Assembly: GCA_965261115.1 (NCBI GenBank)
Contig: OZ253447.1
Coordinates: 647,625-711,624, forward strand
From: Candidatus Poribacteria bacterium
GTDB lineage: Bacteria > Poribacteria > WGA-4E > WGA-3G
Direction: 5' to 3'
DNA length: 64,000 bases
The translations under genes and the position numbers were made by a program. The notes beneath the pieces were generated by a model. That model did not search any database and was not told where the DNA came from. It saw nothing but the letters and a program-made list of their open reading frames with translations. Of the stretch, positions 2,697 to 29,371 are shown piece by piece. Numbering within the stretch: position 1 is the first letter of the stretch; each line of letters opens with the position of its first letter.

Positions 2697-3182
2697 ATGC
2701 AAACTGATCACAAACCATTATCTGCCGAGGCTTACTTCATAGCGGGCAATGAGAAGAGTAAGTCAGGGGACTATAAAGGGGCTATCGCCGCCTACACCCA
2801 AGCAATTCGAGTAAAACCAGATTTTGCGCGTGCCTACTACAACCGCGGAGAGGTGAAAGATAAACTGGGCCAGATACCCGAAGCAACAACAGATCTCCAA
2901 ATTGCAGTAAAACTTGCCAAACAAACCAACGATGTCGGTCTTACACTTACCATCGAACAGAAACTTCAATTACGTCGAATTACTGTCGAGCCAGGTAAAT
3001 GTGGTGGACGCCCCTGTATCCGCGGCATGCGAATTCGAGTTACAGATGTCTTAGGCTTGCTTGCCAACGGACTCTCTTTTAAAGAGATTCTTGAAGAAAT
3101 GCCAGATCTGGAAGCCGAAGATATTCTGGCATGCCTCCAGTTCGCTGCGCATAAAATGGACGCTCCCGTAACGACCACATGA
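2697..3182 (+). CDS. TPR-repeat / DUF433 fusion protein (antitoxin-like)
   Basis: Strong AAGGAG SD. N-terminal TPR-like repeats (AIAAYTQAIRVKPDFARAYYNRGEV); C-terminal DUF433 signature GKCGGRPCIRGMRIRVTDVLGLLANGLSFKEILEEMPDLEAEDILACLQFAA. Confidence 0.7.
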   Translation: MQTDHKPLSAEAYFIAGNEKSKSGDYKGAIAAYTQAIRVKPDFARAYYNRGEVKDKLGQIPEATTDLQIAVKLAKQTNDVGLTLTIEQKLQLRRITVEPGKCGGRPCIRGMRIRVTDVLGLLANGLSFKEILEEMPDLEAEDILACLQFAAHKMDAPVTTT

Positions 3183-3523
3183 AGTTTTGGATCGATGCGC
3201 AACTTTCTCCTGCCTTGGCACCATGGATTACTGACACCTTTGCAGTCGAAGCATTTTCTGTTCAACGGCTTGGGCTTCGAGACGCAAGTGATGAAAGGAT
3301 TTTCTTTGCAGCCCGAGCGGAAAAAGCCATTGTGATAACCAAAGATCAAGACTTTGTGCGATTGTTAGAGAGGCTAGGTCCTCCACCTCAAGTTATTTGG
3401 GTAACTTGTGGCAACATATCAAATGCTCAAATGCGTGATGTTTTGCGACAAGACTTTCAAAGTACGCTTTCACTTTTGCAACAAGGTAAATCCTTGATAG
3501 AAATCCCTGCCCTAATTCTCTGA
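3179..3523 (+). CDS. DUF5615 (PIN-like / Mut7-C-type) domain protein, toxin-like partner of DUF433
   Basis: 4-bp overlap (ATGA) with the upstream DUF433 gene; sequence MKFWIDAQLSP...ITKDQDFVRL typical of the DUF5615 family that pairs with DUF433. Confidence 0.6.
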   Translation: MKFWIDAQLSPALAPWITDTFAVEAFSVQRLGLRDASDERIFFAARAEKAIVITKDQDFVRLLERLGPPPQVIWVTCGNISNAQMRDVLRQDFQSTLSLLQQGKSLIEIPALIL

Positions 3524-3551
3524 TTTTAGGTAAATTCTAAGGAGACAGACG

Positions 3552-3920
3552 ATGGATGTGCAAGACTATTTTGAATTTATTGATGAAACCAGCATCCGCA
3601 TCAAAGGGCATCGCGTTTATATTGATGAGGTGTTAGAAGAACGTTTACAAGGCAAAGAACCCGAAGAAATTTTGTGCTGTTTCCCAAAACTGCCCTTAGA
3701 GAAAATCTACGCTACGCTCCTCTACTATGAGGCGAACAAAACCGAGGTGGAGGCTTACTTAGAACGGGTAAGGCAACAAAAAAGAAAATCAGAAAAAGAA
3801 TGGCAGCGAACCCAGGGCTCCACACTCCTATTCGTTGAAGAGCGAGAACATCTGCGAAAAGAGCGGGAAAAACAGATTGCTTCAGGAAAGTTCAACCCAC
3901 TTTGGGATGAACCTGCATGA
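3552..3920 (+). CDS. DUF433-like domain protein with charged C-terminal extension
   Basis: AAGGAG SD; IRIKGHRVYIDEVLEERLQGKEPEEILCCFPKLPLEKIYATLLYY matches the DUF433 pattern I.G.R..V..VL...G...EEIL..FP.L....IYA.L.YY. Confidence 0.55.
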   Translation: MDVQDYFEFIDETSIRIKGHRVYIDEVLEERLQGKEPEEILCCFPKLPLEKIYATLLYYEANKTEVEAYLERVRQQKRKSEKEWQRTQGSTLLFVEEREHLRKEREKQIASGKFNPLWDEPA

Positions 3921-3970
3921 GGCCCCGATTTCTTCTTCATGAATACCTCAAGCACGCAATTCAGGAACAA

Positions 3971-4351
3971 ATGAAACTGCGAGACTACTTCGACTTCAAC
4001 AGCGAAATCGACATACGCATCAAAGGACATCGTATTGCTATTCAACACGTATTAAATAAGTATCGACAAGGCAAAAAAGTTGATGAACTTCACCGCCGCT
4101 TCCCGACTTTATCCATGGAGGAGATCTACGCCACCATCCTCTATTACCTTGCCAACAAGGAGGAAGTAGAGGTCTACCTTGAACGTGAGAGGCTTATGGA
4201 TGAAGAAGCTGGGAAACTCATAGAAGCGTATGGCAGAACTCCGACTCTGATTAATTGGGAAGAACGCTTAGAAGCAGCTAGACAAAAACTGATCACCGAG
4301 GGAAAATACCCCGCGATGCCGAAATCAGCGTCAGAAGACCCTGCGATGTGA
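3971..4351 (+). CDS. DUF433-like domain protein, paralog of 3552..3920 (alternative upstream start at 3917 overlapping the previous stop)
   Basis: MKLRDYFDFNSEIDIRIKGHRIAIQHVL...EEIYATILYY parallels the upstream paralog; AGGAAC SD before the ATG at 3971. Confidence 0.5.
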   Translation: MKLRDYFDFNSEIDIRIKGHRIAIQHVLNKYRQGKKVDELHRRFPTLSMEEIYATILYYLANKEEVEVYLERERLMDEEAGKLIEAYGRTPTLINWEERLEAARQKLITEGKYPAMPKSASEDPAM

Positions 4352-4396: not shown

Positions 4397-7300
4397 TTAC
4401 TTTCTAATTAACATTTTCCGCGTAGCAGTAAAATCACCCGCTGTTAACGTATAAAAATACAAACCACTCGCAACAGGTTCACCCACCTCATTTTTGCCGT
4501 CCCAATACGCCGCACGGACGCGACTCTCATAGATGCCAGCGACTTGATGCCCTAACGCCAACGTCCGAACCAAGCCACCATCCGCAGCATAGATACGCAC
4601 TGTCACATCCGCAGGTTCCGCAAGCTGATACGGGATCCACGTCTCCGGATTGAACGGATTCGGATAGTTCGCAAGCAACGCCGTCTTTTCGGGAAGTAAC
4701 GATGCTAAAAGTCGTTGAAGATTTTCGATGCCTTGTCGGAAAGCAACCGACCCGTCATTTTCAACCTCCGCCTGTGCGATCCATGCCTGAATCATCGCCG
4801 GATCCAATTCCGAGTTGTCTATAGCAGTAACATTGAAAGGCGCGACTCCCACAGTTGACTCACCGAAACTTTGTGCCACAACGATCAGATCTAAGACATT
4901 AATAGTGCCATCGCCGTTCACGTCCGATTGGCGGTTGACAGACGCATCAGAACCCAAGTGTTGTGCCACCAGAATCAGATCCAGAACATTTACCAAACCA
5001 TCCTGATTGACATCCGAAGCAGGATACTTGCGGTCTTCTATGGTGATAACAATTTCAGGAACTTCTGAAGGGATCGATTCACCGCCGCTGGAGCCAGCAA
5101 AGAAATTGCTAAACGTTACACGGGTTTCTCCGACAGCCTTCGCTTTGAACGTTACCAACAGCAGCGTACCTGTACCACTACCACCCCCTTTAAGCTTTGC
5201 TGTACTAATATCTGCGATTTTACCTGCTGTGTTATCAATTTCGCCTGGCAGAAAGAAGGTATCTCCAATCTTCACATTCAGAAAATCGCCTTGGCTTACC
5301 GCAACCGCTTCAAGAACAGCAGGATCAAACGAAATATCAGTCTGCCATCCTGCTAAACCAGCAACATCATTCGCATTGAGAAAGAGGCTGAAGGTATCAT
5401 CAAGCTGAACAGGTGTTACATCCGTAGAAAGGGAAAATGGTCCATCACTCACACTCACATCTAAAGACGACGGATCTCCGACAGTGATAATCATATCAGG
5501 TGGACGAGAGGAAATTGTATCACCAAGACTCGAACCCGCTTGAAACTTCCGGAGCGATAATCGACTCTCGCCATTCGCCTTCGCCGTAAATGTGACCGAC
5601 AGCAGTGTGCCTTCGCCACTCGCTCCACCTTCGGATATCCGCGCTGAACCGACACCGATGATTCTCCCTTCTGTATTATCAATCGTGCCTCTCAAAAAGT
5701 GCGTGCGTCCACCACCCTGCTTCAGAAAATTGCCCTCGCTTACGTTGTTTACGTTTACTTTTAGCACTGCCGGATCAAACTTAATATCAGTTTGCCAACC
5801 TGCTAAGTCGGAGATATTTTCCGCTTTGAGTTGAACTGTGAACGTCCCGCCAACCTTAACCTGCGTCGCCGCTGTGGAAAAGGAAAATCTGTCACCCGGA
5901 GGTAATACCGTATATTCAGCATCAGGTGCAAACCCGAAATGGGCAGCTCCCCCCCATCCTCCTTCATAATCAAAAACCGCAACTAACAAGACATTTTTTC
6001 CTTGTTTCAGCCTGACAGGGAAGGATTCCTGATAATCGCCTGCCCACTCCCCGACAAGTTGCTCGTTAACTAATTTACCATTGAGCCAGACTTTGTGGTC
6101 ATTATCGCTTCCAGCAAACATTGTCGTCTGCTGTTCCCTGTGTGAATGCAAGATAATGGAACCATACATAACTCTATGTTGGTGGCTGTCATCAATGCCA
6201 AGAGCACTCACCAATTTTCGTGTATTATGGCCATTAGGATCGATTTTATGGGAAGTCCACACATTATTTCCAACAGATTCATCTTCCGTTGCCCCTTCAG
6301 TAGCAACACTTAGTTCCGTCACTTTACCTCCGCTTGCTTGTGCCAGCAGATCTTTGCCATTGTGAAAACCTTCTCCCGGAAGTACTACCCACAACCACGG
6401 TCCTACTATCTTCGGACCTCCTTGCAGGAAATCACTCGGGTTGCCTTGCGACCTAATAATCGTCTTTTCGGACAACCCTTCCAAAGGTGAAAAGTCAGAT
6501 ATCGCATTGTTGCGGAGGTCTAACCGTTCCAAGTTAGTTAATCCGGCAAGTGCCGATACATCCGATATGATATTGTTCTCAAGATACAACACCTCCAACT
6601 TTATTAACTTCGCAAGTGGCGACACATCTTTGATAACATTAGCATCAAGATTCAGGTGTTCCAAGCCTTTTAGATTCGCCAACGGCGTTATATCGGATAT
6701 CTGGTTATTAATCAATTCTAACCATTCCAACTCGGTTAATCCTGATAGTGGGGTAAGGTCTGAGATGTTACAGTTATTGATTTCCAAACGGCGCAGTGCT
6801 TTTAAACCTTTTAGAGATGGAATAACCGATATCGACCTGTCGTTGCTAAATTCTATCCATCGAAGTCTCGGCAACTTTGCCAAAGTAGAAAAATCTGAAA
6901 TAGGCGTACGATGAGCGGCTATACCCTCCAGGCTAATTAAGCTCGCAAGGGACGACACATCCGATATAGGGTTGCCTGAAATCCCAATCCCGTTTAATTT
7001 TCTTAGGCCTCTCAGCGGAGATAAGTCTCTTATTGAGTTTTCTTCAAGTCCCAACCAGTCTACGTTGATCAAGTCAGCAAGCGGTGATACATCGGTGATC
7101 CTGTTCCCTCGTAGCTTGATGTTATTCAGTCGCGTTAAGCCTTTCAGCGGAGATAAGTCGGATATTGAATTGCGTCGAAATTCTATCCGTTCCAACTGCG
7201 TCGCAGCTTCAAGACCCGTTAAATTGCTAATCCCAGCATCATCCGCCTCAATCCGCTCCAACCTTTCCATATCTGCCGCCGTAATCAAAGCCCCAGGGGT

Positions 7301-9058
7301 CTTGCCAAGTGCCGCTTCAACAGCAGCACGTAGGTTTGCATCAGGGATGGTAAAACCGGTGTGCGGTGGACGTGGCTCAAGCACTGGCGGAACGAAATCT
7401 TCGGAATAAAGGGCAGAAATCACATCACTAAAGTTAGCCGTCCAAACATCTCGTTTTACAACACCCTCACTCAGCAACCCTGCTAAACCCAAGTTTTGTA
7501 AACTCGGTTTATCCTCAATCTCTTTACGGAACGCCTCCGTTTCTAACCCTACTGCTGCTGCTGCGTGTGCCGCATCAAGTTCCCCTTGAAATGCAGCGTG
7601 TGACCAAGATACTGGCTCATTAATATCATCAAAGGTACCCCCTGTCAACGCTAAGGCTTCTTTGTAATCCTCGATGTCCTTTGCTACAAGGACATCCATC
7701 TCCGCTTTTTTGACATACAGGCGCAGGGCAAATTCTTTATCAAAAGGCGGGTTCTTTGTGTTCTCTATGGACGCGCGCACCACATCTTCAAACGTTTTCA
7801 TTCCTTCTGTATGACAACCGATACACGATAAACCGTTCCGCACAGTAGGATCATCATCTGCGGGACTCGGAATGGAAACAATATCCGTCGGTGCCACGTC
7901 TATCCGAGTCCCCGAACCATCTGTAATATAATACGCTTGTAGACCGTTCGGCAGATTGAAGATAACCTCACCCCCATCTTTTTCAAAAGACAACGGATGC
8001 GTAGAGATATCCTTCTTGCCTTTACTCCCAGCAAAGTCGTAGCTTTTCCAATACGCCCCATACCGAGATCGGTGACGCTCCACAACACGATTGTGCTTCG
8101 AGACACCCGACTTCGTCATCCCCGCCCGCCAAACACTCCGCCCCGGCGAACTCATATTTCTGGCAACATCTATATCTAACGCTCGCTCAAGTTCTATATC
8201 CGTCATCGGCAAATCCAGAATATCGTGATACAACGGTGGTAGCGAGGCAGTCGCAAGAAACCAATCTACATGAACAAACGGCACTTCGCAGTTCATATCT
8301 TGCCGTAAACTCGTCAACTTCGTAAGCAAATCGGCTTGTGTTTCCGGATCGTATTCTATGGTGTACGGATATTCTGCCTCAATCTTCGGCCATGCATTGC
8401 GGAAATCCGCCTCCCATTCATAATCGCGGAGGTCGATGTAGAAAATCGTGCCTCGCGTCGTTCCATCCGTATCTATAGGCTGCGGATTGGTAATATCTTT
8501 CACCCAGGAAAGGCTATTCACCAGTTTTGAGAGACCAATTTGGTAAGTGTGCAGATCCTCTGGGATCTCGCCGGCGTTATAGAGGTGTGTCATCGTAAAA
8601 TAACGGGCGTAGGGCTGGTCAAAAGGAGCGAGCGTCCTAAGATGATTCTGGATGGCAGTTAGCGTGGCATCGGTTGTAATGAAATTGACATCGCGCTGGA
8701 GCACCCACTCTGGTGCCCCTGCAAGAATCCATCGGCGAATCGTATTAATTCTTTCTTCAGGCAGCGGTTCTTCGTTGAAAGGCATCTGGGCACCCTTTTC
8801 AGTCGGTCCGAGAAGTCGTTTATAGAACTCGGAGGCATCAGGGTTCCCAGATACCACTGTTCCGGTAGCAATCAAGCCTTTTGCAGACTCAATGGCGAGG
8901 TTTTCGATAAAGGTACCCCCTGGTCCGTGGCAGTTGAGGCAGTGTTTATGAAAAATAGCATACGCCTCTTGCGCAAGGTTATTTTGTGCCTGTGCGGTTC
9001 CAAATCCCAGCATGACAAATGTTAAGATAACGAGGGATATGTTCTTATTTGTTTTCAT
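4397..9058 (-). CDS. Giant secreted multidomain protein: signal peptide, PSCyt1-like cytochrome c module (two CxxCH), LRR array, LamG-like jellyroll, two cohesin-like modules, dockerin, T9SS-type C-terminal sorting domain
   Basis: Start moved to the ATG at 9058, which has an AAGGAG SD (the track's GTG at 9082 is upstream in-frame). Signal peptide MKTNKNISLVILTFVMLGFGTAQA. Heme motifs CLNCHG and CIGCHT. Internalin-like LRRs (NISDLTPLSGLTELEWLEL...). Dockerin DVNQDGLVNVLDLILVAQ...DVNGDGTINVLDLIVVAQ. C-terminus NYPNPFNPETWIPYQL...YFYTLTAGDFTATRKMLIRK resembles a Por_Secre_tail domain. Confidence 0.75.
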   Translation of the reverse strand: MKTNKNISLVILTFVMLGFGTAQAQNNLAQEAYAIFHKHCLNCHGPGGTFIENLAIESAKGLIATGTVVSGNPDASEFYKRLLGPTEKGAQMPFNEEPLPEERINTIRRWILAGAPEWVLQRDVNFITTDATLTAIQNHLRTLAPFDQPYARYFTMTHLYNAGEIPEDLHTYQIGLSKLVNSLSWVKDITNPQPIDTDGTTRGTIFYIDLRDYEWEADFRNAWPKIEAEYPYTIEYDPETQADLLTKLTSLRQDMNCEVPFVHVDWFLATASLPPLYHDILDLPMTDIELERALDIDVARNMSSPGRSVWRAGMTKSGVSKHNRVVERHRSRYGAYWKSYDFAGSKGKKDISTHPLSFEKDGGEVIFNLPNGLQAYYITDGSGTRIDVAPTDIVSIPSPADDDPTVRNGLSCIGCHTEGMKTFEDVVRASIENTKNPPFDKEFALRLYVKKAEMDVLVAKDIEDYKEALALTGGTFDDINEPVSWSHAAFQGELDAAHAAAAVGLETEAFRKEIEDKPSLQNLGLAGLLSEGVVKRDVWTANFSDVISALYSEDFVPPVLEPRPPHTGFTIPDANLRAAVEAALGKTPGALITAADMERLERIEADDAGISNLTGLEAATQLERIEFRRNSISDLSPLKGLTRLNNIKLRGNRITDVSPLADLINVDWLGLEENSIRDLSPLRGLRKLNGIGISGNPISDVSSLASLISLEGIAAHRTPISDFSTLAKLPRLRWIEFSNDRSISVIPSLKGLKALRRLEINNCNISDLTPLSGLTELEWLELINNQISDITPLANLKGLEHLNLDANVIKDVSPLAKLIKLEVLYLENNIISDVSALAGLTNLERLDLRNNAISDFSPLEGLSEKTIIRSQGNPSDFLQGGPKIVGPWLWVVLPGEGFHNGKDLLAQASGGKVTELSVATEGATEDESVGNNVWTSHKIDPNGHNTRKLVSALGIDDSHQHRVMYGSIILHSHREQQTTMFAGSDNDHKVWLNGKLVNEQLVGEWAGDYQESFPVRLKQGKNVLLVAVFDYEGGWGGAAHFGFAPDAEYTVLPPGDRFSFSTAATQVKVGGTFTVQLKAENISDLAGWQTDIKFDPAVLKVNVNNVSEGNFLKQGGGRTHFLRGTIDNTEGRIIGVGSARISEGGASGEGTLLSVTFTAKANGESRLSLRKFQAGSSLGDTISSRPPDMIITVGDPSSLDVSVSDGPFSLSTDVTPVQLDDTFSLFLNANDVAGLAGWQTDISFDPAVLEAVAVSQGDFLNVKIGDTFFLPGEIDNTAGKIADISTAKLKGGGSGTGTLLLVTFKAKAVGETRVTFSNFFAGSSGGESIPSEVPEIVITIEDRKYPASDVNQDGLVNVLDLILVAQHLGSDASVNRQSDVNGDGTINVLDLIVVAQSFGESTVGVAPFNVTAIDNSELDPAMIQAWIAQAEVENDGSVAFRQGIENLQRLLASLLPEKTALLANYPNPFNPETWIPYQLAEPADVTVRIYAADGGLVRTLALGHQVAGIYESRVRAAYWDGKNEVGEPVASGLYFYTLTAGDFTATRKMLIRK

Positions 9059-9151
9059 TACCCGTCTCCTTTGAAGATACACCTATCGTTTTTTAGTTCG
9101 GTCCGGTGCGGTTAGGAAACCGCATCTACCTTTCTTGCGACGAACAGCAAT

Positions 9152-11425
9152 TTATTTCCTGATTAGCATTTTGCGCGTGGCAGTGAAATCGCCTGCAGTG
9201 AGCGTATAGAAATAGACACCACTCGCAACAGGTTCACCGACTTCATTGTGACCATCCCAATACGCAGCACGCGTCCGTTGTTGATATACGCCCGCGGGTT
9301 GGTGTCCTAAGTCCAACGTCCGAACCAATGCACCGTTCACTGCAAAGATCTGTAAAGTGACTTTGGCAGGTGCAGCGAGTTGATACGGTATCCACGTCTC
9401 CGGATTGAACGGATTCGGATAGTTCACAAGCAACACCGTTTTTTCCGGCAGTAACAACGCTAAAAGTCGTTGCAGATTCGCGATACCTTGTTGGAAAACA
9501 ACCGAACCGTCGTTTTCAACTTGTGCTTGTGCGATCCACGCCTTTATCATCGCCGGATCTAATCCCACGCCGTTTAGCGCCAGAACAGAAGGGGCAGCCG
9601 CAATTCCGCTCAATTCTCCGAGGTGTCCCGCAACAAGGATAAGGTCCGAGATGTTGACCGCCCCATCGCCATTTACGTCCGCCCGCGCGTTGGTGGGCCC
9701 AGTTTTTTCGAAGCTCTGCCCTACCAGAATCAGATCGAGAATGCTTGTGATCCCATCTTTATTCACATCATAAGCAGGCACTTCGATCATAACCTTTTTA
9801 TCCGGATGGTTCACCGTATACTCTGTGTCTTTGGAAAAACCAAAAAATCCACTAAACCCGCCATGACCCCGATTGTCAACAGCAACTAATAAAACATTCG
9901 TTCCAGGTTTCAGTGTGACGGGAAACGCATCTTGGAAGTCGCCAGCACCCCGAAGCACAGGGTTGTAGTGTACCACCTCACCGTTGAGCCAGATTTTCAC
10001 CTCATCATCGCTCCCAGCAAGCATCGTTGTATCCTGTTCACGCGGCGATTCCAACGTGACGGAACCATAAACCACGTGGTCATACACCTCCGAACCCGAT
10101 CCCCAACCGAGGGCATCCGTCATTTCATTGATGTTATCCCCACCCGTCGGTGAGAGGGTATGCACCTCCCAGATGCTGCTGCCTACAGACTTCCCTTCGG
10201 TCGCCCCAAAGGTAGCCACTTTCACCTCTGTAACCTTGCCCTTACTCGCCTTTGCCAGCAGATCTGTGTTATCAAGGCGTGCCCCAGGCACAATCACCCA
10301 CAACCAAGGTCCCTCTATTTTTGGTCCTGCTTCCGGGAAAGCGGAGTTAACGAAGTCTGAGTGTGAGATTGATGTGCTCTCAGCGAATCTTTCTAAACTC
10401 GATACGTCTGCTATTGGATTTTCAGTAAGCCCCATCCATGTCAAACTTGGCAAGGATACAAGCGAGGATACATCCGTTATCCGATTCTGACTCAGATCTA
10501 ACCAAGTCAGGTTAGATAACGCTGAAAGTGGAGAGACATCCGATATAGCATTGCGGTGCAGGTCAATCCAAGTCAACCCGTTTAATGCCTCAAGGGGCGA
10601 TATATCCGATATTTCATTACCCTCAAGACTGAGGCGTGTCAACCCTGTTAAACTCGCCAAGGCAGAGATATCGGTAACTTCATTGCCCGGGAGATAGAGT
10701 TCTTTCAGACTCGTTAACCCCTCCAAAGAGGAGACATCCGATATTTCTCCGCCGCAAATATTTATCACCCGCAACTTCGGTAACTTCGCCAAGGGTGCAA
10801 GGTCTAATATAGGCGTGCCCCAAGTGTGAAAGCCCTGCAGGCTGATGAGTCCTGTAAGTGGCGACAGATCAGCCACAGGATTGTGGCTCATCGCTATCGA
10901 CCTAAGTTTTATCAAACCCGCAAGTGGAGACCAGTCGTCTACAACGTTATCTCCAAGATTTACATGCCGCAAGTTGATTAACCCTTTAAGAGGTGATATA
11001 TCGGATATCAAGTTATGTGGGATATGCAAATCACCTAAGTTGATTAACCCCTTAAGAGGTGATATATCGGATACGGTATTATCTTCCAATTGTATGCGAT
11101 GCAATCTGATCAATTCTGCAAGCGGCGATAGATCGGATATCGAATTGTGGTTAAGTCTCAGGTCCTCAAGATTTGTTGCCGTTTCAAGCCCCGTCAAATC
11201 GCTAATGCGTCTGTTATTCGCCTCAAGACGGATCAACCTCTCCATCTCATCCACGGTAACCCGGGCATCCGGTGCTTTATCGAGTGCTTCATTAATCGCT
11301 TCGCGAAGGTTCGCGTCAGGGATGTCAACGGTCTGTGCCCTTGTTATCAATGGAAACAAAAAGAACAGCATTACGCAAAGCGTGAGTGTATAAACAAAAA
11401 TGTGTTTTCTTTTACTGAGTACCAT
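9152..11425 (-). CDS. Secreted LRR / LamG-like / dockerin / T9SS-CTD protein, tandem paralog of the giant protein
   Basis: Signal peptide MVLSKRKHIFVYTLTLCVMLFFLFPLITRAQ; LRR repeats; dockerin DVNKDGITSILDLILVGQ...DVNGDGAVNISDLILVAG; C-terminal ~110 aa nearly identical to the neighbour (ends ...FYTLTAGDFTATRKMLIRK). Confidence 0.75.
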   Translation of the reverse strand: MVLSKRKHIFVYTLTLCVMLFFLFPLITRAQTVDIPDANLREAINEALDKAPDARVTVDEMERLIRLEANNRRISDLTGLETATNLEDLRLNHNSISDLSPLAELIRLHRIQLEDNTVSDISPLKGLINLGDLHIPHNLISDISPLKGLINLRHVNLGDNVVDDWSPLAGLIKLRSIAMSHNPVADLSPLTGLISLQGFHTWGTPILDLAPLAKLPKLRVINICGGEISDVSSLEGLTSLKELYLPGNEVTDISALASLTGLTRLSLEGNEISDISPLEALNGLTWIDLHRNAISDVSPLSALSNLTWLDLSQNRITDVSSLVSLPSLTWMGLTENPIADVSSLERFAESTSISHSDFVNSAFPEAGPKIEGPWLWVIVPGARLDNTDLLAKASKGKVTEVKVATFGATEGKSVGSSIWEVHTLSPTGGDNINEMTDALGWGSGSEVYDHVVYGSVTLESPREQDTTMLAGSDDEVKIWLNGEVVHYNPVLRGAGDFQDAFPVTLKPGTNVLLVAVDNRGHGGFSGFFGFSKDTEYTVNHPDKKVMIEVPAYDVNKDGITSILDLILVGQSFEKTGPTNARADVNGDGAVNISDLILVAGHLGELSGIAAAPSVLALNGVGLDPAMIKAWIAQAQVENDGSVVFQQGIANLQRLLALLLPEKTVLLVNYPNPFNPETWIPYQLAAPAKVTLQIFAVNGALVRTLDLGHQPAGVYQQRTRAAYWDGHNEVGEPVASGVYFYTLTAGDFTATRKMLIRK

Positions 11426-11439: not shown

Positions 11440-12207
11440 TTAGGAGCGTGCCTGTAAGCGTGCAAGTTGTTCTCGGAGGCGTTCGACTTCTGCTTCAGCT
11501 TTCTGTCGGGCAAGAGTTTCTTGTGCCGCGCGTGCCTCCACATCCTCTGCGCGTGCCTCCGCATCCTCTGCGCGTGCCTCCGCATCTTCCGCGCGTGCGG
11601 CGTGCTGCTCCGCTGGCGTTTGGAGCCATTGCTCCGCAACCGGGTCGTAAACCCCCAAACGCCTCTCCCGTATATGGAAATCCAAACCGAGAACATCTGA
11701 ATGCACCCCGCCATCAACACTCGGCAGAATTGGGACATAGACTCCCTTTACCAACTGAAAGCCCATCAACGGTGAAGGCAGATAGAGTGCCTCAGCATCA
11801 TAGAGGAGATAGTTCGGTATGCCGAGCGCAGCGTAGAGCGCCATCTTGTCTGTTAGGTCATTCTGATAGGTCGTTTTGCTTGAGAACTCCATCACGAAAT
11901 CTGGAACCTTTCCCTCTTCCCATACCTTGTAAGTGTGTCGCTTCTTTTGCCCGATACCGAAAGAGACGAGGACATCGGGTGCGACGACTGCGCGGGGGTT
12001 GCCCTCGGTATAATATGTCAGAATATCACCAGAGACATAGACATCCGGCATCTGCGCGAAATGTGCCTTCAGCGTCTGCAAAAGCCAGAAAAGGATTTCG
12101 AGGTGGAGATCGCTAGCTGCCATAGGTTTACCGTCCGTTTCGGGGTAGAGGTCCGTCGTGTCTGTGGGTGCGTAAGGCATGTTACGCCCATTTTTATAGG
12201 TATCCAT
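11440..12207 (-). CDS. Uma2-family (DUF820) PD-(D/E)xK endonuclease-like protein with repetitive C-terminal coiled-coil tail
   Basis: GAGGAG SD. Uma2-like core (...DGKPMAASDLHLEILFWLLQTLKAHF...VYVSGDILTYY...). C-terminal AEDAEAR heptad repeats. Confidence 0.6.
   Translation of the reverse strand: MDTYKNGRNMPYAPTDTTDLYPETDGKPMAASDLHLEILFWLLQTLKAHFAQMPDVYVSGDILTYYTEGNPRAVVAPDVLVSFGIGQKKRHTYKVWEEGKVPDFVMEFSSKTTYQNDLTDKMALYAALGIPNYLLYDAEALYLPSPLMGFQLVKGVYVPILPSVDGGVHSDVLGLDFHIRERRLGVYDPVAEQWLQTPAEQHAARAEDAEARAEDAEARAEDVEARAAQETLARQKAEAEVERLREQLARLQARS
11528..11602. repeat. 21-bp tandem repeat (~3.5 units, GCGCGTGCCTCCGCATCCTCT) inside the 3' part of the Uma2 gene
   Basis: Seen directly; encodes the AEDAEAR repeats; also creates the spurious Pro/Arg-rich ORFs 11400..12116(+) and 11412..11738(-). 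Confidence 0.7.
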
Positions 12208-12662: not shown

Positions 12663-15245
12663 CTACGCTTTCTGCTTCGGATTCCAGAACGCACAAATCA
12701 CCGCTGTAATCGGGATCGCAAGCACTAAGCCGAGCGTGCCAGCCAATAACCGCACTATTTCTGCGGAGACAACACCGATGCTCAATAACTGCGCAGGCGG
12801 CGATTTAAAGAAGTTCAGATCCGGTGCTACAACCGTGACAACAAGCAGCAACTCCACACCGAGATAGGCAAAGACCAGCGTATTCACCATCGTCCCCAAG
12901 ATGTCCGTACCGACGTTGAGACCGGAGGCGATGAGCCGCCATGTCGGCATATTCGGGTTCGCCTTACGAATCTCCTCCATACTCGATGCCACCTCAATCG
13001 CACCATCAACAGCGACACCTAACACCCCCATCAACATCCCCGCCAAGAGGATTTGCACGAAATCGAAGGGTGGCGTGCGTGTCGCCTCTATAATATCCGC
13101 TGAAATCGCATTCTCTAACCCAGAAAAATGGAGATGCTGCTGCGCAAACAGGACAATCAGACCCGCAACCAAAATACCACCCATCGTCCCCAACACGGCT
13201 GAAAACGTCTTCCGACTCGGACCGATAACGAACACCAGCGACACAAACGCCACCACGCCTGATGTTAGCGTCACGATAAACACCGCATTCGCGCCGCCCG
13301 AAATCAACGGCAGCATGAAGAAATAGATGACAGCCGCTGAGATCAGCATCGCACACGCCGTACGGATGCCTTCAATCCGACCCACGAGGATAATCAGGAG
13401 CAGCATCCCACCAACCATCCAAATCAGGAACCGGTCCCTACCGTAATCTTGGACGATGTTAACGAGACTCACCTGTTCAGGATCGCCCGCGACACGGCAC
13501 AGGATAACGTCACCCGGCTCCGCAGGAATACTCAGCAACGGCATATTGTGATTCACGATATTCCGTAACACCAAGCGTCTGCCTTTATACATCCCGCTCA
13601 GCATCTCCACCTCAAGGATATGATGCTCGCTTTTCGATTCATAGACACCGAGAACGGTTCTCTCTCCATGATCCGTCTCACGAATACTATAGGTCTGCTC
13701 ATATTTAACATCCGAAAGGAGCCAGCGACTGTCTTTCCACGGTTTCACGGATACAGTGACCTCGTCAGATAACGGAATGTTCTCCTTGTTGAACGCCTCA
13801 CGCAAAGCCGAAGGAACAACCTGTTTGTCCAACTCACTTATAGCACTGCTGTCAATATCAAAAAGGAAATTGCCGTTCGACTCAAGCAGTTGGACGACTC
13901 TACCTTTCGCGTACTCCGACTGTTCTGAGATTGCAGCGGAGAGTCCGTGCGTTCGATGGTACACAAAGATTGTGCCAATCAGGACAATCCCCATCGCAAT
14001 CGGCACAGCAATACGTGCCTTGCTATGCGGCGGATCAGCACGGAACAACTCCTCTAACTCTTCCTCTGAAGGCAGGTCTTCATGAATTTCGGATCTGTCT
14101 ACCTGCGTGTATTGCGTCAGAAACCCCGCAACGGATGCCGCAATCGGGACCGTCAACACCAATCCGATGGTGCCTACCACCGCCTGAATAATCGCAACAG
14201 CCGTCGCTTCATCGTTGACGAGACGGAGAAATGGATAGAGGTAACCGACTTCTGGGAATTCGATGCGCGGGAGCAGCATCGTCATCATGTGCGCGCCGAG
14301 GTAGGCGAAAATGAGCGTGTCCGCCATTGTCCCCATAATGTCGCGTCCGACATTCAGCCCAGCACGGATCGCCTGTCGCACGGTGATATTCGGGTTCACC
14401 TGCTTGACTTCATGGACACTTGAGGAGATGGACATACTCACATCCATCATCGCACCGACAGCCCCTAAGATGATGCCTGCGGACAGAATGCCTGTGAAGT
14501 TCCAACCGTGTGAGGCGGGGGTCCGCCACAGCGCAATACCGAGTTCAAGGAACCCGAACTCTTGCGCCAATCCTGTGAGTGCCAGCGCATGTTGACTGAT
14601 GACCGACAAAACACCAACAGCAGCTAAGCCGCCGAGCGTGCCAAGCACACCGGAGATGACTTTGAAACTAAACCCTGTAATGAGAAGGAAGGTCGCTAAC
14701 GTGAGGAGGGCAGCAATTAAGAGCGCGACACCAATCGGGTTATAACCGCTAATCGTCAGGGGCACCAGCAGATACAACACAGAAAGCGCAGTGACAAACA
14801 AGGTCAGAATCGCGCGGACACCTTTCATCCCAGCGACAAGGATCATCAGCACGCCCAACGTACCTGCCAGATATAACAGGAACGGCGTACGGAAATACTC
14901 CCGCATCGACACCCGCTCAATTTTCGGGTTCATCGGATCCCGGAGCGGAATATCAAGGAACAGCACATCCCCCTTGTGCACCACCCTGTCCCCGAAGGCG
15001 CGGCCCGTCCAAACGTTGTTGACTTGGACTGTCTCCCCACGAAATTGTCCAGAGAGGATACGGAAGGACAATACTTGGTCCGCCTCGTCGCTCGTATCTA
15101 TTTTAATAACGCGTCCCAAGCAGACCAGCACCTGCAACGCCCCATCGTGCGTCACTTCCGCAAACCGATAAAGTTTCACGTGTAACACAGCAACGCTCAG
15201 CAGGATAAGCAAGATCGCGACGATTTTGATGTTTCTTTCTCGCAT
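12663..15245 (-). CDS. YibE/F-family integral membrane protein with the YibE/F module duplicated in tandem within one polypeptide
   Basis: 860 aa with two homologous halves (e.g. IRAGLNVGRDIMGTMADTLIFAYLGA vs IASGLNVGTDILGTMVNTLVFAYLGV), each preceded by a soluble N-terminal segment and containing multiple TM helices. Confidence 0.6.
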   Translation of the reverse strand: MRERNIKIVAILLILLSVAVLHVKLYRFAEVTHDGALQVLVCLGRVIKIDTSDEADQVLSFRILSGQFRGETVQVNNVWTGRAFGDRVVHKGDVLFLDIPLRDPMNPKIERVSMREYFRTPFLLYLAGTLGVLMILVAGMKGVRAILTLFVTALSVLYLLVPLTISGYNPIGVALLIAALLTLATFLLITGFSFKVISGVLGTLGGLAAVGVLSVISQHALALTGLAQEFGFLELGIALWRTPASHGWNFTGILSAGIILGAVGAMMDVSMSISSSVHEVKQVNPNITVRQAIRAGLNVGRDIMGTMADTLIFAYLGAHMMTMLLPRIEFPEVGYLYPFLRLVNDEATAVAIIQAVVGTIGLVLTVPIAASVAGFLTQYTQVDRSEIHEDLPSEEELEELFRADPPHSKARIAVPIAMGIVLIGTIFVYHRTHGLSAAISEQSEYAKGRVVQLLESNGNFLFDIDSSAISELDKQVVPSALREAFNKENIPLSDEVTVSVKPWKDSRWLLSDVKYEQTYSIRETDHGERTVLGVYESKSEHHILEVEMLSGMYKGRRLVLRNIVNHNMPLLSIPAEPGDVILCRVAGDPEQVSLVNIVQDYGRDRFLIWMVGGMLLLIILVGRIEGIRTACAMLISAAVIYFFMLPLISGGANAVFIVTLTSGVVAFVSLVFVIGPSRKTFSAVLGTMGGILVAGLIVLFAQQHLHFSGLENAISADIIEATRTPPFDFVQILLAGMLMGVLGVAVDGAIEVASSMEEIRKANPNMPTWRLIASGLNVGTDILGTMVNTLVFAYLGVELLLVVTVVAPDLNFFKSPPAQLLSIGVVSAEIVRLLAGTLGLVLAIPITAVICAFWNPKQKA

Positions 15246-23180: not shown

Positions 23181-24242
23181 ATGAGCGACACCAAACATCG
23201 CGTAGCCATCATCGGGTGTGGACGGATGGGGCAGAACTATGCAGAAGCCTATACCACCTATCCCGACACAGAAATTATTGCGATCGTCGATGCCAATACG
23301 GAACGGCGGGAGGTCCTCGGTACGCGCTTCAATGTTGAGGCACTCTATTCAGATGTAGAGGCACTATTGCGCGACATCGTACCAGACATCGCTGTCGTTG
23401 TTACGCCTACCAAATACATGAAAGATGCCGTAATCGCCTGCGCAGAAGCCGGCATCAAAGGCATCTCCACCGAGAAACCGATCGCCGCCCGTCTCGAAGA
23501 TGCCGATGCAATGGTCAACGCGTGTGCTGAACGCGGCATCGTGTTCGCTGGCGGCAATCTGCAACGCGCAATGAACGAAGTCCAAGAAGCCGCATCCCGA
23601 CTCCATAACGGCGAATTTGGCGACATCAAGGGCGCGACTGTTCACGGATTCGGTGGCGAAATCTCCGGCGGCGGATGTCAACACATCTCGGTCCTACGGC
23701 TTTTCACCAACGCCGAAGTTGAGGAGATCGTCGCATACGGAACACCACCTGAAGCGTTAAACGCGGAAACCGATGAAGGTCTAATCATCAACGGACATTT
23801 CCAACTTACAAACGGGTTGACATGTAGTGTCTTCGGGACACAGACGCCCTGCCGCGGCGTAGACGTCTGGACAGACGAATGCCTCGTCCGCTGGGACTGG
23901 AACCCCCCAGAGATTTTCAAAGGCTATGACCCAAACGGCAATCGTATCCGCCTCGAACCCAATTACAATCCGTATCCCTGGAACGAATTCAGTTACCTCA
24001 CCGGTTCAATCCGCTCCTTTTTGGCAGCAGTTGAGGGCAACGGACACCCCTGGATTACTGGCGCGGATCTCCGACAGGCGTTAGAGGTGGCAATCGCGGC
24101 GAAACTCTCCGCAACCCGAAACAGTGTTCCCATCAAATTACCTCTGGAGGACAGATCCTTAGCACTCTACCCACGTCCCTACCGATGGCTCGGTGGCGAC
24201 GCAACCGGTAAACCCCAAAGTATCAAAGAAGCAAAGTCGTAG
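23181..24242 (+). CDS. Gfo/Idh/MocA-family NAD(P)-dependent oxidoreductase
   Basis: RVAIIGCGRMGQNYAEAY Rossmann N-terminus; GGAGG SD. Confidence 0.75.
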   Translation: MSDTKHRVAIIGCGRMGQNYAEAYTTYPDTEIIAIVDANTERREVLGTRFNVEALYSDVEALLRDIVPDIAVVVTPTKYMKDAVIACAEAGIKGISTEKPIAARLEDADAMVNACAERGIVFAGGNLQRAMNEVQEAASRLHNGEFGDIKGATVHGFGGEISGGGCQHISVLRLFTNAEVEEIVAYGTPPEALNAETDEGLIINGHFQLTNGLTCSVFGTQTPCRGVDVWTDECLVRWDWNPPEIFKGYDPNGNRIRLEPNYNPYPWNEFSYLTGSIRSFLAAVEGNGHPWITGADLRQALEVAIAAKLSATRNSVPIKLPLEDRSLALYPRPYRWLGGDATGKPQSIKEAKS

Positions 24243-24290
24243 GCACGCTCCGACGTGCCGTCCACATAGCAATAAGCACGCTCCGCGTGC
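24242..24290. repeat. Two copies of hairpin repeat GGCACG(C)TCCG(A)CGTGCC immediately after the stop codon
   Basis: Family (A)AGTAGTAGGCACGCTCCGCGTGCCGTAAC also at 27842-27870, 46810-46838 and a degenerate copy at 46985-47012, always just 3' of a stop codon. Confidence 0.7.
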
Positions 24291-24308
24291 CGTAACAGGA
24301 GAACAACG

Positions 24309-25097
24309 ATGAACGAAGATCAGAAATATCTATTCGATTTGACCGGATTCCTCATCGTCGAAAACGCCCTGACAGCCGAAGAAGTCGCACAATGCAACGC
24401 AGCCATTGACCATCACATTGAGGCACTCAGAGAACGTGATAGCTCACTCGCAGGCGGCTCACCCGCACTTGTCGGCACAGCACACCGGATGGACATGGGC
24501 GGTATGCTCGCATGGGAGAAACCGTGGTGCGAACCGTTCCGAAATCTCCTCGTGCATCCGAATGTTAAACCCCACCTTGAAGAAGCATTGGGCAAACAGT
24601 ATCGACTCGACCACGGTCCCGGTTTAATCGCCATGGAAAAAGGGACGGAAGGCGGCACTTTACACGGTGGCGGGATTGAACGCCCCAATTTCTCCGAAGC
24701 CTATTTCTTCAAATATGGACGGATATACACAGGTTTGACCGTCGTCGAATACATGCTTGCCGATGAAGGTCCCGGCGATGGAGGCTTAGCCATCATACCC
24801 GGAAGCCACAAGGCAAACCTCCCCTGTCCGAGCAGCATGAAGCGATACGAACAATATCAGAATCTGGTGCTTGAAGTCAATGCTAAGGCTGGCGATGCCG
24901 TGATTTTCACTGAAACCTTGACACACGGCACGCTTCCGTGGAAAGGCAGCCATCAACGGCGTGCACTTCTCTACAAGTTCAGTCCTGGATTCCAGTCTTA
25001 TGGGGTCGGGGCACACCAGGTTACGTATCCCGATTACATTGAGGATATGTCCCCTGAACAGCGAGAAGTTATGGAGGCACCCCACATCCGTCACTAA
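24309..25097 (+). CDS. Phytanoyl-CoA dioxygenase (PhyH) family Fe(II)/2OG oxygenase
   Basis: PhyH-like sequence incl. IIPGSHK; AGGAG SD. Confidence 0.6.
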   Translation: MNEDQKYLFDLTGFLIVENALTAEEVAQCNAAIDHHIEALRERDSSLAGGSPALVGTAHRMDMGGMLAWEKPWCEPFRNLLVHPNVKPHLEEALGKQYRLDHGPGLIAMEKGTEGGTLHGGGIERPNFSEAYFFKYGRIYTGLTVVEYMLADEGPGDGGLAIIPGSHKANLPCPSSMKRYEQYQNLVLEVNAKAGDAVIFTETLTHGTLPWKGSHQRRALLYKFSPGFQSYGVGAHQVTYPDYIEDMSPEQREVMEAPHIRH

Positions 25098-25177
25098 ACC
25101 CGTTCAGGACTTACGCAGCGCCTCTTAGAATCCCTCTGATAAGGGGGATTTAGGGGGTTAGAAATAAGGAGAAACCC

Positions 25178-26119
25178 GTGTCAAATCTACGCGTTGCTGT
25201 CATCGGTTGCGGCGGCAGAGGCCGCGGCCACATGAAAATCCTCTCCGAATTTGACGATACTACCCTCGTCGCTGTCTGCGACCCTGTTGAAGCGGCACGA
25301 AACAACGCCGCGGATACGTTCAACGTTTCAAACCGCTATGAGAGCATTGACGAACTATTGGACAGTGAAACCTTAGACGCTATTTTCGTCGCGACACCGG
25401 CGCACCTCAACGGTGAGGCAGCACTCCCGTGCTTTGAACGCGGTGTCCACACGCTTTTAGAGAAACCCCCAGGGATGAGCGTCTCTGAGACAGTCGCCTT
25501 GCGTACTGCAGCAGAACGGACAGGTGCGAAAGGGATGGTAGGCTGGAACCGTCGCTTCCATCCGATCATCGTTGAAGCAAAACGCCAAGTTACCGCACGC
25601 GGTCCTGTCACGCAAATCGTCGGGGAATTCCACAAGAGTATTACCCGACTGACAGGCAGATTTCCAGAACATCTGATGGACAACATGTTCTTGGAGACAC
25701 CGATCCACGCCCTTGATACGATCCGTGCCGTAGCCGAAGCCGACGTCCAAGAAGTGCATAGCGTCGTCCAACGGGCGATTTCAGATTACAAGGATGTCCA
25801 CGCCGCACTCATTCTGTTTGACAACGGATGCGTCGCACAACACATCGCCAACTACACCACAGATGCACGTCTCGAACGCTACGAGATTCACGGGAGAGAC
25901 ATCTCGGCTTACCTCGAAGGCGTCTCCCAAGGCACCGTTTTCTGTGATGGAACGCAGCACAAACTCACTGAGGCAGGCACCGGCGGCACCGTTGAGCAGA
26001 ACAGATATTTTTTAGATTGCGTCAAATCCGACACCCCAGTTTCGTTCCCAGCAGCGAATCTTGACGAAGCCGTTAAAACTATGCAACTCGCTGAAGATAT
26101 TCTAAACGGACTGCGTTGA
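25178..26119 (+). CDS. Gfo/Idh/MocA-family oxidoreductase
   Basis: GTG start with AAGGAG SD; RVAVIGCGGRGRGHMKIL N-terminus; EKPPGMS motif. Confidence 0.75.
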   Translation: MSNLRVAVIGCGGRGRGHMKILSEFDDTTLVAVCDPVEAARNNAADTFNVSNRYESIDELLDSETLDAIFVATPAHLNGEAALPCFERGVHTLLEKPPGMSVSETVALRTAAERTGAKGMVGWNRRFHPIIVEAKRQVTARGPVTQIVGEFHKSITRLTGRFPEHLMDNMFLETPIHALDTIRAVAEADVQEVHSVVQRAISDYKDVHAALILFDNGCVAQHIANYTTDARLERYEIHGRDISAYLEGVSQGTVFCDGTQHKLTEAGTGGTVEQNRYFLDCVKSDTPVSFPAANLDEAVKTMQLAEDILNGLR

Positions 26120-26269
26120 GAAAATTCGCGTCCCGTGGAAGATCGGAACGGTTGGAAGGATGAAACCTCTCCTTTCCAGCCTTCCCATATTCCAGTCTTC
26201 CAATCCCAGACGCAAACGAATGGATTCTGTGTAAGCCTTAAAATTGAAAATTGCTTGAAAGGAAAACCA

Positions 26270-27094
26270 ATGCCAACATTAGAAGAACGCTTTGAAGCCT
26301 ATAAAACCGACGGCTTCGCAATCTTTGAAAAGGTCTTTGACGAACCCCAAATGCAAAATTGGCGCGAGAAACACGCAGAACTCTCCGCAGCCAACGACGG
26401 ACAAACCTGGTTCGGCAATACCCTCGAACTGGCACCTGAACTCATGTGGCCCGCCGTCTCACACCCGACAATCCTTGAATTTATAGAAAAGGTGATGGGT
26501 CCCTTTGTGCAATTAGATAACCTCACACTCGCCGCGTTTCCACCCATGGAAAAAGAAAAAGCGGAGGGTAGGGTCTCCGGGTGGCACCGCGACCGATGGG
26601 CACACGTCCCCTACACCGACGCCTATCACCGTCCGAACGCCATCAATGCCATCTCCTATCTGCAAGACCTAACACACGAATTCGGACCCCTCCGCGTCAT
26701 TGTCGGTTCGCATCGGAAACCGATTACCATGGAAGACTCACAACGCGGCATCCCACATCCCGATGAAACACTCATCCACATGGGAGCTGGGGATGTCGTC
26801 ATCACACACAACGGACTCATCCACTCCGGCACACCGAATACTTCTGACAAGCTACGCTATTTCTTCAGCATCTACTATAATCTGACATGGCTGAAACATA
26901 CCGATCACCACACGGGTCCGCACACCCAAAAATTATTGGAAACCGCAAGAGCCGCAAATAACCATCAACACATGCGACTCCTCGGTGTCGATGAGCAACT
27001 CCAACCGCGATGTAACTCCGGCTTCCTCCAATCCGATGAAGAACGCTGGGAAGAATGGGCAACAACCGACCGCGACGCAATCAAGGAGGCATAA
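26270..27094 (+). CDS. PhyH-family dioxygenase (start moved to the ATG at 26270 with AAGGA SD)
   Basis: WHRDRW and VIVGSHRKP motifs. Confidence 0.6.
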   Translation: MPTLEERFEAYKTDGFAIFEKVFDEPQMQNWREKHAELSAANDGQTWFGNTLELAPELMWPAVSHPTILEFIEKVMGPFVQLDNLTLAAFPPMEKEKAEGRVSGWHRDRWAHVPYTDAYHRPNAINAISYLQDLTHEFGPLRVIVGSHRKPITMEDSQRGIPHPDETLIHMGAGDVVITHNGLIHSGTPNTSDKLRYFFSIYYNLTWLKHTDHHTGPHTQKLLETARAANNHQHMRLLGVDEQLQPRCNSGFLQSDEERWEEWATTDRDAIKEA

Positions 27095-27097
27095 CCG

Positions 27098-27841
27098 ATG
27101 GCAAATCCTGTAGTGCCACCAACACTCAACGTCGAACTCGATCACCAATTGCAACAAGAGGTCAACTTCTTCCTCAACTGGGGCTACCTCGTTGTTGACA
27201 ACGCCGCAACACCTGAACAGATTGAATCGCTACGCGCGGCACTCGATGAAAGCTACGAACGCAGAGACAAAAGCCAATTCATCGGGGAACTGCTTGAGGA
27301 AGACGACCGGTTCGCTTTCCTGCTCGACAATCCACCGGTCATGAAACGGATGGAAGCCATATTAGGCACCTGTGTCCAACTCCACAGTGCAACAGCACGC
27401 ATCACCGAACCCGGAACACCAGACCAGCATTGGCACCGCGATGGCCCCTGGCCCGTCGCACCCAACGGAACACCCTACGGGAGTCTACCAGCACAGATTA
27501 ATTGCGGCTATTACCTCGACGAAGTTACCGACGACAACGGTCCCACGGTTATCCAACCGGGTAGCCACAGAGCACCCTTCCGTCCACCGCCAACGCCTGT
27601 CGAATTGCCCGATGAAAAACGGGTCCTCGTCTCCCCCGGACAAGCGGTTATGTTCGACGGATGGACATGGCACCGAGGCGCAGCGAACAACTCCTCACAA
27701 CGTCGGCGCGTCTGCCTGATGTGCTACCAAAACGCCTGGATGAAATCCCGCGAACCCTTTGACGGACCCCGCGTCACCAAACTCCGAGAAGAAGGCACGC
27801 CGCAGCAGCAACTCTTACTCGGCGCAATCCCAAAATGGTAA
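27098..27841 (+). CDS. PhyH-family dioxygenase
   Basis: HWHRDGPW and IQPGSHRAPF motifs; AAGGAGG SD. Confidence 0.65.
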   Translation: MANPVVPPTLNVELDHQLQQEVNFFLNWGYLVVDNAATPEQIESLRAALDESYERRDKSQFIGELLEEDDRFAFLLDNPPVMKRMEAILGTCVQLHSATARITEPGTPDQHWHRDGPWPVAPNGTPYGSLPAQINCGYYLDEVTDDNGPTVIQPGSHRAPFRPPPTPVELPDEKRVLVSPGQAVMFDGWTWHRGAANNSSQRRRVCLMCYQNAWMKSREPFDGPRVTKLREEGTPQQQLLLGAIPKW

Positions 27842-27885
27842 AGTAGTAGGCACGCTCCGCGTGCCGTAACCAACGGAAATTATAT

Positions 27886-29340: not shown

Positions 29341-29371
29341 AACATCCAGTCCCTTTCTTTGCAGGCGGGGT

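Follow-up and report, generated by a model that had tools for sequence, protein, structure and literature searches.

A conserved poribacterial gene pair that combines cohesin, dockerin, leucine-rich repeat and two-haem modules: a candidate non-cellulosomal surface assembly

Cohesin-dockerin pairs outside cellulosomes, leucine-rich repeat (LRR) surface proteins and C-terminal tails of the T9SS (type IX secretion system) type are all known kinds. BspA-type LRR surface proteins of the Bacteroidota also combine LRRs with a T9SS C-terminal domain (CTD), and the NagH/NagJ toxin complexes of Clostridium perfringens (2ozn/2jnk) are a non-cellulosomal example of cohesin-dockerin pairing; non-cellulosomal cohesin and dockerin modules were reportedly surveyed by Peer et al. 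in 2009. Here we describe two tandem genes, designated A and B, from a 64-kb stretch of Candidatus Poribacteria DNA (contig OZ253447.1), which is referred to as the window and in whose numbering all positions are given. With moderate confidence, we propose that the products of these genes may form a surface assembly of the non-cellulosomal cohesin-dockerin kind, in which variable LRR binders for host or particle ligands are displayed. We did not find a description of this combination in a conserved multi-copy gene pair, of a phylum-wide dockerin-linker-CTD tag on repeat proteins, or of the unannotated two-haem domain that is present in A.

Like clostridial scaffoldins, such as ScaB of Acetivibrio/Pseudobacteroides cellulosolvens, A carries tandem cohesins together with its own dockerin, as adaptor scaffoldins do. 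The dockerins of A and B have the two calcium-binding F-hand segments of cellulosomal type I dockerins, and the nearest structures in the PDB were 3l8q (ScaB) and 2y3n_B (Cel48). Unlike clostridial cellulosomes, A and B contain neither enzymes nor carbohydrate-binding modules (CBMs) and belong to a Gram-negative sponge symbiont; furthermore, the putative anchor is a T9SS-type CTD rather than SLH or sortase, and the cargo consists of LRR and WD40 binders plus a haem module. The likeness to the non-cellulosomal modules lies in a pair with a putative assembly role outside plant cell-wall degradation; the poribacterial pair differs from them in being a conserved, multi-copy, two-gene cassette, the tail of which is found on more than 6000 proteins.

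The LRR regions resemble those of the Listeria internalins (InlA/InlH), with 22-residue units, an N-terminal cap and a variable concave face; unlike the internalins, A and B lack an inter-repeat immunoglobulin-like region and an LPXTG or GW anchor, and have cohesin, dockerin and haem modules added. As in T9SS type A cargo of the Bacteroidota and the Fibrobacteres-Chlorobi-Bacteroidetes group, both proteins end in a beta-sandwich of about 85 aa that passes the TIGR04183 model, but the poribacterial CTD always follows a conserved helical linker and usually a dockerin. Planctomycete PSCyt1 proteins (with DUF1549/DUF1553) form an expanded family and resemble A in that a large, uncharacterised extracytoplasmic region comes after an N-terminal cytochrome c, which in A is PSCyt1-like; unlike them, A had no DUF1549, DUF1553 or PSD matches, and its 440-aa domain has an invariant CxxCH motif of its own. 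Kamke et al. 2014 (PMC3909097) described the abundance in Poribacteria of LRR (PF12799) and WD40 proteins that have signal peptides and TIGR04183 tails; the main text of that paper makes no mention of cohesin, dockerin or cytochrome, and neither the cassette nor the scaffold logic nor the haem module is described there. The features of the two genes are as follows.

4397..9058, minus strand: gene A, 1553 aa, with signal peptide, dihaem module, LRR array, beta-sandwich, two cohesins, dockerin, linker and CTD (open reading frame (ORF), translation, Pfam, NCBIfam)
9152..11425, minus strand: gene B, 757 aa, with signal peptide, LRR array, beta-sandwich, dockerin, helical linker and CTD (ORF, translation, Pfam, NCBIfam)
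9059..9151, minus strand: spacer between B and A, 93 nt, with a hairpin that has no T-run on the coding strand (sequence)
8705..8974, minus strand: A, class-I/PSCyt1-like cytochrome c sub-domain, aa 29-118 (CLNCH at aa 40-44; Met92-Pro93)
7379..8704, minus strand: A, conserved alpha/beta domain of about 440 aa without family annotation, aa 119-560 (CIGCH at aa 412-416)
6461..7348, minus strand: A, N-terminal cap and 12 LRR units, aa 571-866 (LRR_4, 120 bits; periodicity)
5903..6418, minus strand: A, beta-sandwich paralogous to that of B, aa 881-1052 (alignment of A with B; Glyco_hydro_2_N, E 0.018)
5045..5893, minus strand: A, two cohesins, aa 1056-1190 and 1200-1338, 51% identical to each other (Cohesin, 72.3 bits, two stretches)
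4862..5020, minus strand: A, dockerin, aa 1347-1399 (Dockerin_1, 37.9 bits; DVNQDGLVNVLD...DVNGDGTINVLD)
4400..4861, minus strand: A, helical linker, aa 1400-1464, and C-terminal sorting-type domain, aa 1465-1553 (TIGR04183, FlgD_ig)
10385..11323, minus strand: B, N-terminal cap and 13 internalin-like LRR units of 22 residues, aa 35-347 (LRR_4, 130.5 bits; strict 22-aa periodicity)
9806..10327, minus strand: B, conserved beta-sandwich of about 175 aa, aa 367-540 (weakly GH2-N/PA14-like)
9611..9775, minus strand: B, dockerin with two F-hand calcium-binding segments, aa 551-605 (Dockerin_1, 33.5 bits; DVNKDGITSILD...DVNGDGAVNISD)
9155..9610, minus strand: B, helical linker of about 60 aa, aa 606-667, and C-terminal beta-sandwich sorting-type domain, aa 668-757 (TIGR04183, FlgD_ig)

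An earlier reading of the sequence without database searches (the sequence-only reading) had proposed two tandem, paralogous ORFs of 1553 and 757 aa, both with signal peptides. The coordinates, lengths and paralogy were confirmed: identity between A and B was 46% across the LRR and beta-sandwich regions (531 aa) and 67% across the last 221 aa, and their last 20 residues were the same. Sec-type signal sequences were read from the translations at both N-termini. The ATG start of A at 9058 is preceded by an AGGAG Shine-Dalgarno sequence and its methionine is shared by homologues of A; the program-made ORF extends to a GTG at 9082. An AGGAGG Shine-Dalgarno sequence, strong like that of A, precedes the ATG of B. 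Since the spacer hairpin has no T-run on the coding strand, A and B are probably co-transcribed; no minus-strand terminator-like site was found in the spacer, and promoter and terminator scans of the window gave results at chance level.

Matches to Pfam and NCBIfam were judged against the curated cut-offs (LRR_4 27, Cohesin 24.1, Dockerin_1 22.9 bits). The internalin-like LRR arrays that had been proposed were upheld, with 120 bits for 12 units in A and 130 bits for 13 units in B, and the LRR regions of A and B aligned with internalin_A at E values of 4e-52 and 5e-54, respectively. The class 1 internalin models (NF033189 etc.) scored 177-184 bits against a cut-off of 1600, the alignment being confined to the LRR region. 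In 78 B-type homologues the concave-face positions of the repeats were the most variable (1.8-2.0 bits), compared with 0.2-0.6 bits at the scaffold positions.

The two cohesins of A that the sequence-only reading had recognised were also verified, with 72.3 bits for PF00963 in A and no match in B; the ScaB cohesins in the PDB (3l8q) matched A at E 1e-5 in an alignment that spanned both modules. In two-cohesin proteins, position-1 and position-2 cohesins formed separate groups (67% identity within, 53% between), which is compatible with two binding specificities but is no proof of them. A database search for cohesins gave short fragments only, from which little can be read about complete architectures. 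Dockerins had been proposed for both proteins, and both passed PF00404 with two DxNxDGxxxxxD F-hand loops in each; the best dockerin match in the PDB was that of Cel48 (2y3n_B, E 6e-9). Across 98 dockerins the calcium-binding loops were conserved, and the A-type and B-type dockerins were distinct groups (59% identity within, 50% between).

In contrast, the proposed LamG-like jellyroll did not hold. The domain that follows the LRRs gave no LamG match (e.g. PF13385) at E ≤ 10, and a 47-sequence profile of it found none in the PDB. Instead, weak matches were obtained to Glyco_hydro_2_N in A, to BetaGal_ABD2 and RhaB_D2 in B (E 0.13-0.19), and, with the profile against the PDB, to GH2 beta-galactosidase, glucuronidase and the PA14 domain of RsgI3 (E 0.2-1.2). 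This conserved beta-sandwich is of uncertain family and may bind sugars.

Species-representative genomes were scanned with B. The scan gave 397 relatives, from which 73 loci in approximately 52 genomes (41-82% identity) were kept, and the modules of A and B were mapped by tblastn onto the 1.4 Mb of these loci. All 73 loci came from Candidatus Poribacteria metagenome-assembled genomes (MAGs) or single-cell genomes (SAGs), or from sponge-type MAGs. The B-type architecture (LRR-sandwich-dockerin-linker-CTD) was found in 84 ORFs and the A-type architecture (dihaem-LRR-sandwich-one or two cohesins-[dockerin-linker]-CTD) in 69. The order B then A on the same strand was present in 64 adjacent pairs at 61 of the 73 loci; the median spacer was 85 nt. 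Tandem B-A-B-A repeats were frequent (16 A-to-B adjacencies), and the cassette occurred at several sites per genome. Every complete B carried a dockerin and every complete A at least one cohesin; in 13 A-type proteins a cohesin was present and the protein's own dockerin was absent. A dockerin-only gene beside a cohesin-bearing gene is therefore a stable feature, and this is the pattern expected of a cognate pair in which the dockerin of B is the ligand of the cohesin of A. Other than A and B, no conserved neighbours were found beside the cassette at the 73 loci.

Upstream of the cassette, at 12663-15245 on the minus strand, lies a gene for an 860-aa protein with two YibE/F-like stretches, and a Uma2-like gene (11440-12207) sits between it and B. 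The YibE/F-like gene was common to eight related loci, which probably represent true orthologous positions. Antisense ORFs of about 200 aa were also seen inside the LRR-coding regions (10845-11393 on the plus strand of the window) and recurred at 64 loci; the most likely explanation is that the codon periodicity of the repeats produces them and that they are not real genes.

The dockerin-linker-CTD tail extends beyond the gene pair. It ends a seven-bladed WD40 protein (locus L013, 16482-18203, plus strand) and a 2296-aa LRR/Big_1 protein in the same set of loci, and dockerins also end a GHL15-LRR protein (L043), a Big_5/CopC protein and, in part, an ankyrin protein. Of the tail, only the CTD is present in a cohesin-reprolysin-like protein (L013:18431-20659). 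When the tail of the WD40 protein was used as the query, 6032 proteins matched at E ≤ 0.001, and among their N-terminal parts are domains of the WD40, cohesin, LDL-receptor class B and CARDB families; the named ones were all poribacterial proteins called 'T9SS type A sorting domain-containing protein'. This breadth suggests that Poribacteria may use the tail generally as a tag on secreted repeat proteins. In agreement with the statement of the sequence-only reading that the combination was not a described family, no paper linking Poribacteria with dockerin or cohesin was found in the literature searched, and the relatives bear only the NCBI names 'hypothetical protein' or 'T9SS type A sorting domain-containing protein'.

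The T9SS-type sorting domain that had been proposed at both C-termini scored above the cut-off of 23 bits with TIGR04183 (T9SS type A; A 25.7 bits, B 29.9 bits). Both domains also scored above the cut-off of 27 bits for the Pfam family FlgD_ig (A 33.7 bits, B 36.2 bits), and that of A matched the FlgD structure 7eh9 in the PDB at E 4e-4. We take the motifs at the end of the domain (YPNPFNP, GxYFY and K-hydrophobic-x-hydrophobic-x-K) to be typical of type A CTDs. Among the 78 B-type homologues the CTD was the most conserved module, with an entropy of 0.72 bits compared with 1.2-1.4 for the others, and its median identity across paralogues was 79%, compared with 41-62% for the other modules; such conservation would fit recognition by a shared machinery. 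Taken together, the variable concave face, the fixed scaffold of the repeats and the conserved CTD are what would be seen if a binding surface were diversifying while the assembly-and-sorting chassis beneath it stayed constant.

The N-terminal region of A, which is lacking in B, had been described as a PSCyt1-like haem-binding module with a second CxxCH motif. For the first part of this description the results were mixed. In A itself PSCyt1 (PF07635) scored 18.6-20.8 bits, below the cut-off of 22, and B gave no match, but 60 of 67 relatives matched at E ≤ 1 (best E 9.4e-10). Cytochrome_CBB3 was found in 66 of the 67 relatives and was sub-threshold in A, and FoxE and a cbb3 subunit were the only profile matches in the PDB; outside aa ~30-118, nothing in the module resembled a known family. 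The second CxxCH motif was present as CIGCH (aa 412-416, nt 7811-7825) and was invariant; however, it lies outside the cytochrome c, in the separate, conserved domain of about 440 aa. Both CxxCH motifs and Met92-Pro93, a Met-Pro axial-ligand motif, were invariant in the 67 relatives, as were C412, C415, H416 and approximately 30 other residues, polar or aromatic, at an overall identity of 37-66%.

No Pfam, NCBIfam or PDB sequence match was obtained for aa 119-560. Structure prediction of the N-terminal part with AlphaFold2 (AF2) gave a confident model of the two-haem module when the diverse alignment of 67 sequences was used (pLDDT 92.4, pTM 0.88); this run superseded one with 35 close homologues (pLDDT 63). 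When the model was compared by Foldseek with the PDB and BFVD, nothing similar was detected and the best E values were approximately 0.8. The fatty acid cis/trans isomerase CTI (PF06934) was considered as an identity for the module and was rejected, because its matches were weak, partial and below threshold: 14 of the 67 relatives matched at E ≤ 1 (best 1.3e-4), and in the relative P0126 the match covered about 75 of 692 model positions, beside the cytochrome domain.

More than 2267 close relatives of aa 1-565 of A, at 57-91% identity and mostly LRR-bearing proteins or split genes, were found in a word-indexed search. An exhaustive search returned a family of 5013 clusters (at 50% identity) at E ≤ 0.001 and 1443 at E ≤ 1e-30. 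The module occurs in other phyla at approximately 40% identity, with Planctomycetota and Chthonomonadaceae as named examples, and its fusion partners there are FGE-sulfatase, Ser/Thr kinase, TonB_C, WD40 or TPR domains. On a plasmid of Neorhizobium petrolearium (NZ_CP123001.1; L078, 5615-10376) it forms part of a 1157-aa c-type cytochrome (30% identity, 85% of the query), the gene for which is located 17 nt downstream of a gene for a Ferric_reduct/FAD/NAD (NOX-like) transmembrane reductase. This neighbour hints that the module may take part in electron transfer. A caspase-family gene and an OmpA-family gene were also seen near the cytochrome gene.

In an 11x long-read metagenome contig (L075, 6001-10232) an A-type gene was split into ORFs of 576 aa (dihaem) and 811 aa (LRR-cohesin-dockerin-CTD), and B was fragmented as well. 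Because of this split gene, many of the 'stand-alone' dihaem proteins of about 570 aa in the databases may be split or frameshifted A genes that arose as assembly frameshifts.

From these observations the proposed cohesin-dockerin surface assembly can be outlined. After Sec export and periplasmic haem attachment, the CTD would direct A and B across or onto the outer membrane, where the dockerin of B would plug into a cohesin of A and the dockerin of A could engage a cohesin on a further A or on some other cohesin-bearing protein. The result would be a membrane-proximal and possibly chain-forming complex, displaying two different, rapidly diversifying LRR surfaces beside a redox-active haem module, for which electron transfer, sensing or catalysis are candidate roles. 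Its likely purpose would be recognition of, or adhesion to, ligands of the sponge host or of particles. The self-assembling surface scaffold put forward in the sequence-only reading is thus made more plausible by the 64 pairs in which a dockerin-only B stands beside a cohesin-bearing A, although the binding itself is inferred.

A wider version of this proposal is tentative and on the unlikely side. It holds that a phylum-wide assembly exists, cellulosome-like yet non-catalytic, in which tail-tagged LRR, WD40 and possibly ankyrin proteins would be plugged into haem-bearing surface cohesin scaffoldins, with a new haem-protein fold and either an unrecognised T9SS, none being known in the phylum, or a new export route. 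If true, the assembly would amount to a modular, rapidly evolving host-interaction organelle, and the haem fold would be common to thousands of uncharacterised proteins, including those of other phyla.

Several results weigh against the surface assembly of A and B. Since most modules are shared, the adjacency of the two genes could be mere paralogue duplication, and, because dockerin-bearing proteins number in the thousands, the true cohesin partners may be other proteins. The CTD scored below the cut-off of 27 bits for Por_Secre_tail (PF18962) in A (13.4 bits) and in B (18.2 bits); the related CTD of the cohesin-CTD protein in L013 scored 36.8 bits with the same model. Kamke et al. 2014 (PMC3909097) reported no Por structural genes in poribacterial SAGs, which were incomplete genomes, and no T9SS structural genes were found within the window or as conserved neighbours at the 73 loci. 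The haem module is without a functional analogue, and in three other genomic contexts of the module (L074, L076 and L077), which were inconsistent with one another, nothing like the NOX-like neighbour was found.

The most probable of the alternatives is that A and B, as adhesins or binders that act independently, arose merely by tandem duplication and form no specific A-B complex, their dockerins and cohesins engaging other partners or nothing. Such an origin would account for the paralogy of A and B and for the tandem duplication of the cassettes, and the more than 6000 proteins that share the tail, together with other cohesin proteins such as that at L013:18431-20659, offer other partners. 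We nevertheless regard it as rather unlikely, since the B-then-A order and the complementary module content are kept in 64 pairs from approximately 52 genomes, even where A has no dockerin of its own; simple duplication would not maintain such an order and asymmetry.

A second alternative concerns the export step. The CTD may be a structural, FlgD-Ig-like beta-sandwich and no secretion signal, the proteins then being periplasmic or released in another way, as might be suggested by the higher scores of FlgD_ig than of Por_Secre_tail, by the FlgD structures among the PDB matches, and by the lack of Por genes in the poribacterial SAGs (PMC3909097). The domain is strictly C-terminal, however, passes TIGR04183, has the end motifs given above and is the most conserved module across unrelated types of cargo, and the SAGs were incomplete; we judge this alternative to be unlikely.

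It is doubtful, and in our view quite improbable, that the core function is redox or enzymatic, with LRR, cohesin and dockerin merely positioning the two-haem module on a substrate, partner cell or host matrix. The approximately 30 invariant residues and both haem motifs, retained in 67 relatives at 37-66% identity, point in this direction, as do the fusions of the module to FGE-sulfatase, Ser/Thr kinase, TonB_C and WD40 domains and the NOX-like gene 17 nt before the cytochrome gene on the Neorhizobium plasmid. This neighbour is a single case, however, with nothing similar in the three other contexts, and no known enzyme fold was matched; furthermore, B is equally conserved yet has no such module.

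The least likely alternative is a true cellulosome-like, polysaccharide-degrading complex, which we consider very improbable because no glycoside hydrolase or other carbohydrate-active enzyme and no recognised CBM was found in A or B with Pfam and NCBIfam and because the dockerin-tagged cargo in the loci is mainly LRR and WD40 repeat proteins, even though cohesin and dockerin modules are present, the beta-sandwich is weakly like GH2-N/PA14 sugar-binding domains, a GHL15-dockerin protein is encoded at one related locus (L043), and Poribacteria are rich in sulfatases and sugar oxidoreductases.

How the sponge host recognises and tolerates its symbionts is an open question in which 'eukaryote-like' repeat proteins are the main suspects. 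The cassette makes this question testable through specific cohesin-dockerin pairs and through variable LRR surfaces that can be used as bait for host ligands. The conserved, putative CTD signal allows the export machinery to be sought in the complete Poribacteria chromosomes that are now available, and the 560-aa two-haem module, which represents a very large unannotated family without a solved or matched fold, is a good structural and biochemical target.

The remainder of the window was also annotated, and no transfer RNA or Rfam features were found in it. Four small genes adjoin A at 2697-4351 on the plus strand; three encode DUF433 proteins, one of them fused to TPR, and one a DUF5615/PIN-like protein, an arrangement that is toxin-antitoxin-like. 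Genes for GFO/IDH/MocA oxidoreductases and PhyH-family dioxygenases, with one sulfatase gene, are dense at 23181-31950 and 61463-62224 (plus strand). The region from 32000 to 44000 has a G+C fraction of 0.42-0.46, compared with 0.49-0.54 around it, and encodes a DDE transposase, Fic protein, Uma2 nuclease, N6/N4 DNA methylase and ResIII helicase (1047 aa). The methylase and the helicase resemble a type III restriction-modification system, and the region is probably an acquired defence island. The sulfatase, PhyH, GFO/IDH/MocA, toxin-antitoxin-like and restriction-modification genes of the window fit a poribacterial origin. Finally, a 1932-aa protein that resembles two head-to-tail UvrA units, in which UvrA_inter occurs in two stretches and several ABC ATPase domains accompany a UvrA DNA-binding domain, is encoded at 51667-57465 on the plus strand; this is about twice the usual length of UvrA.

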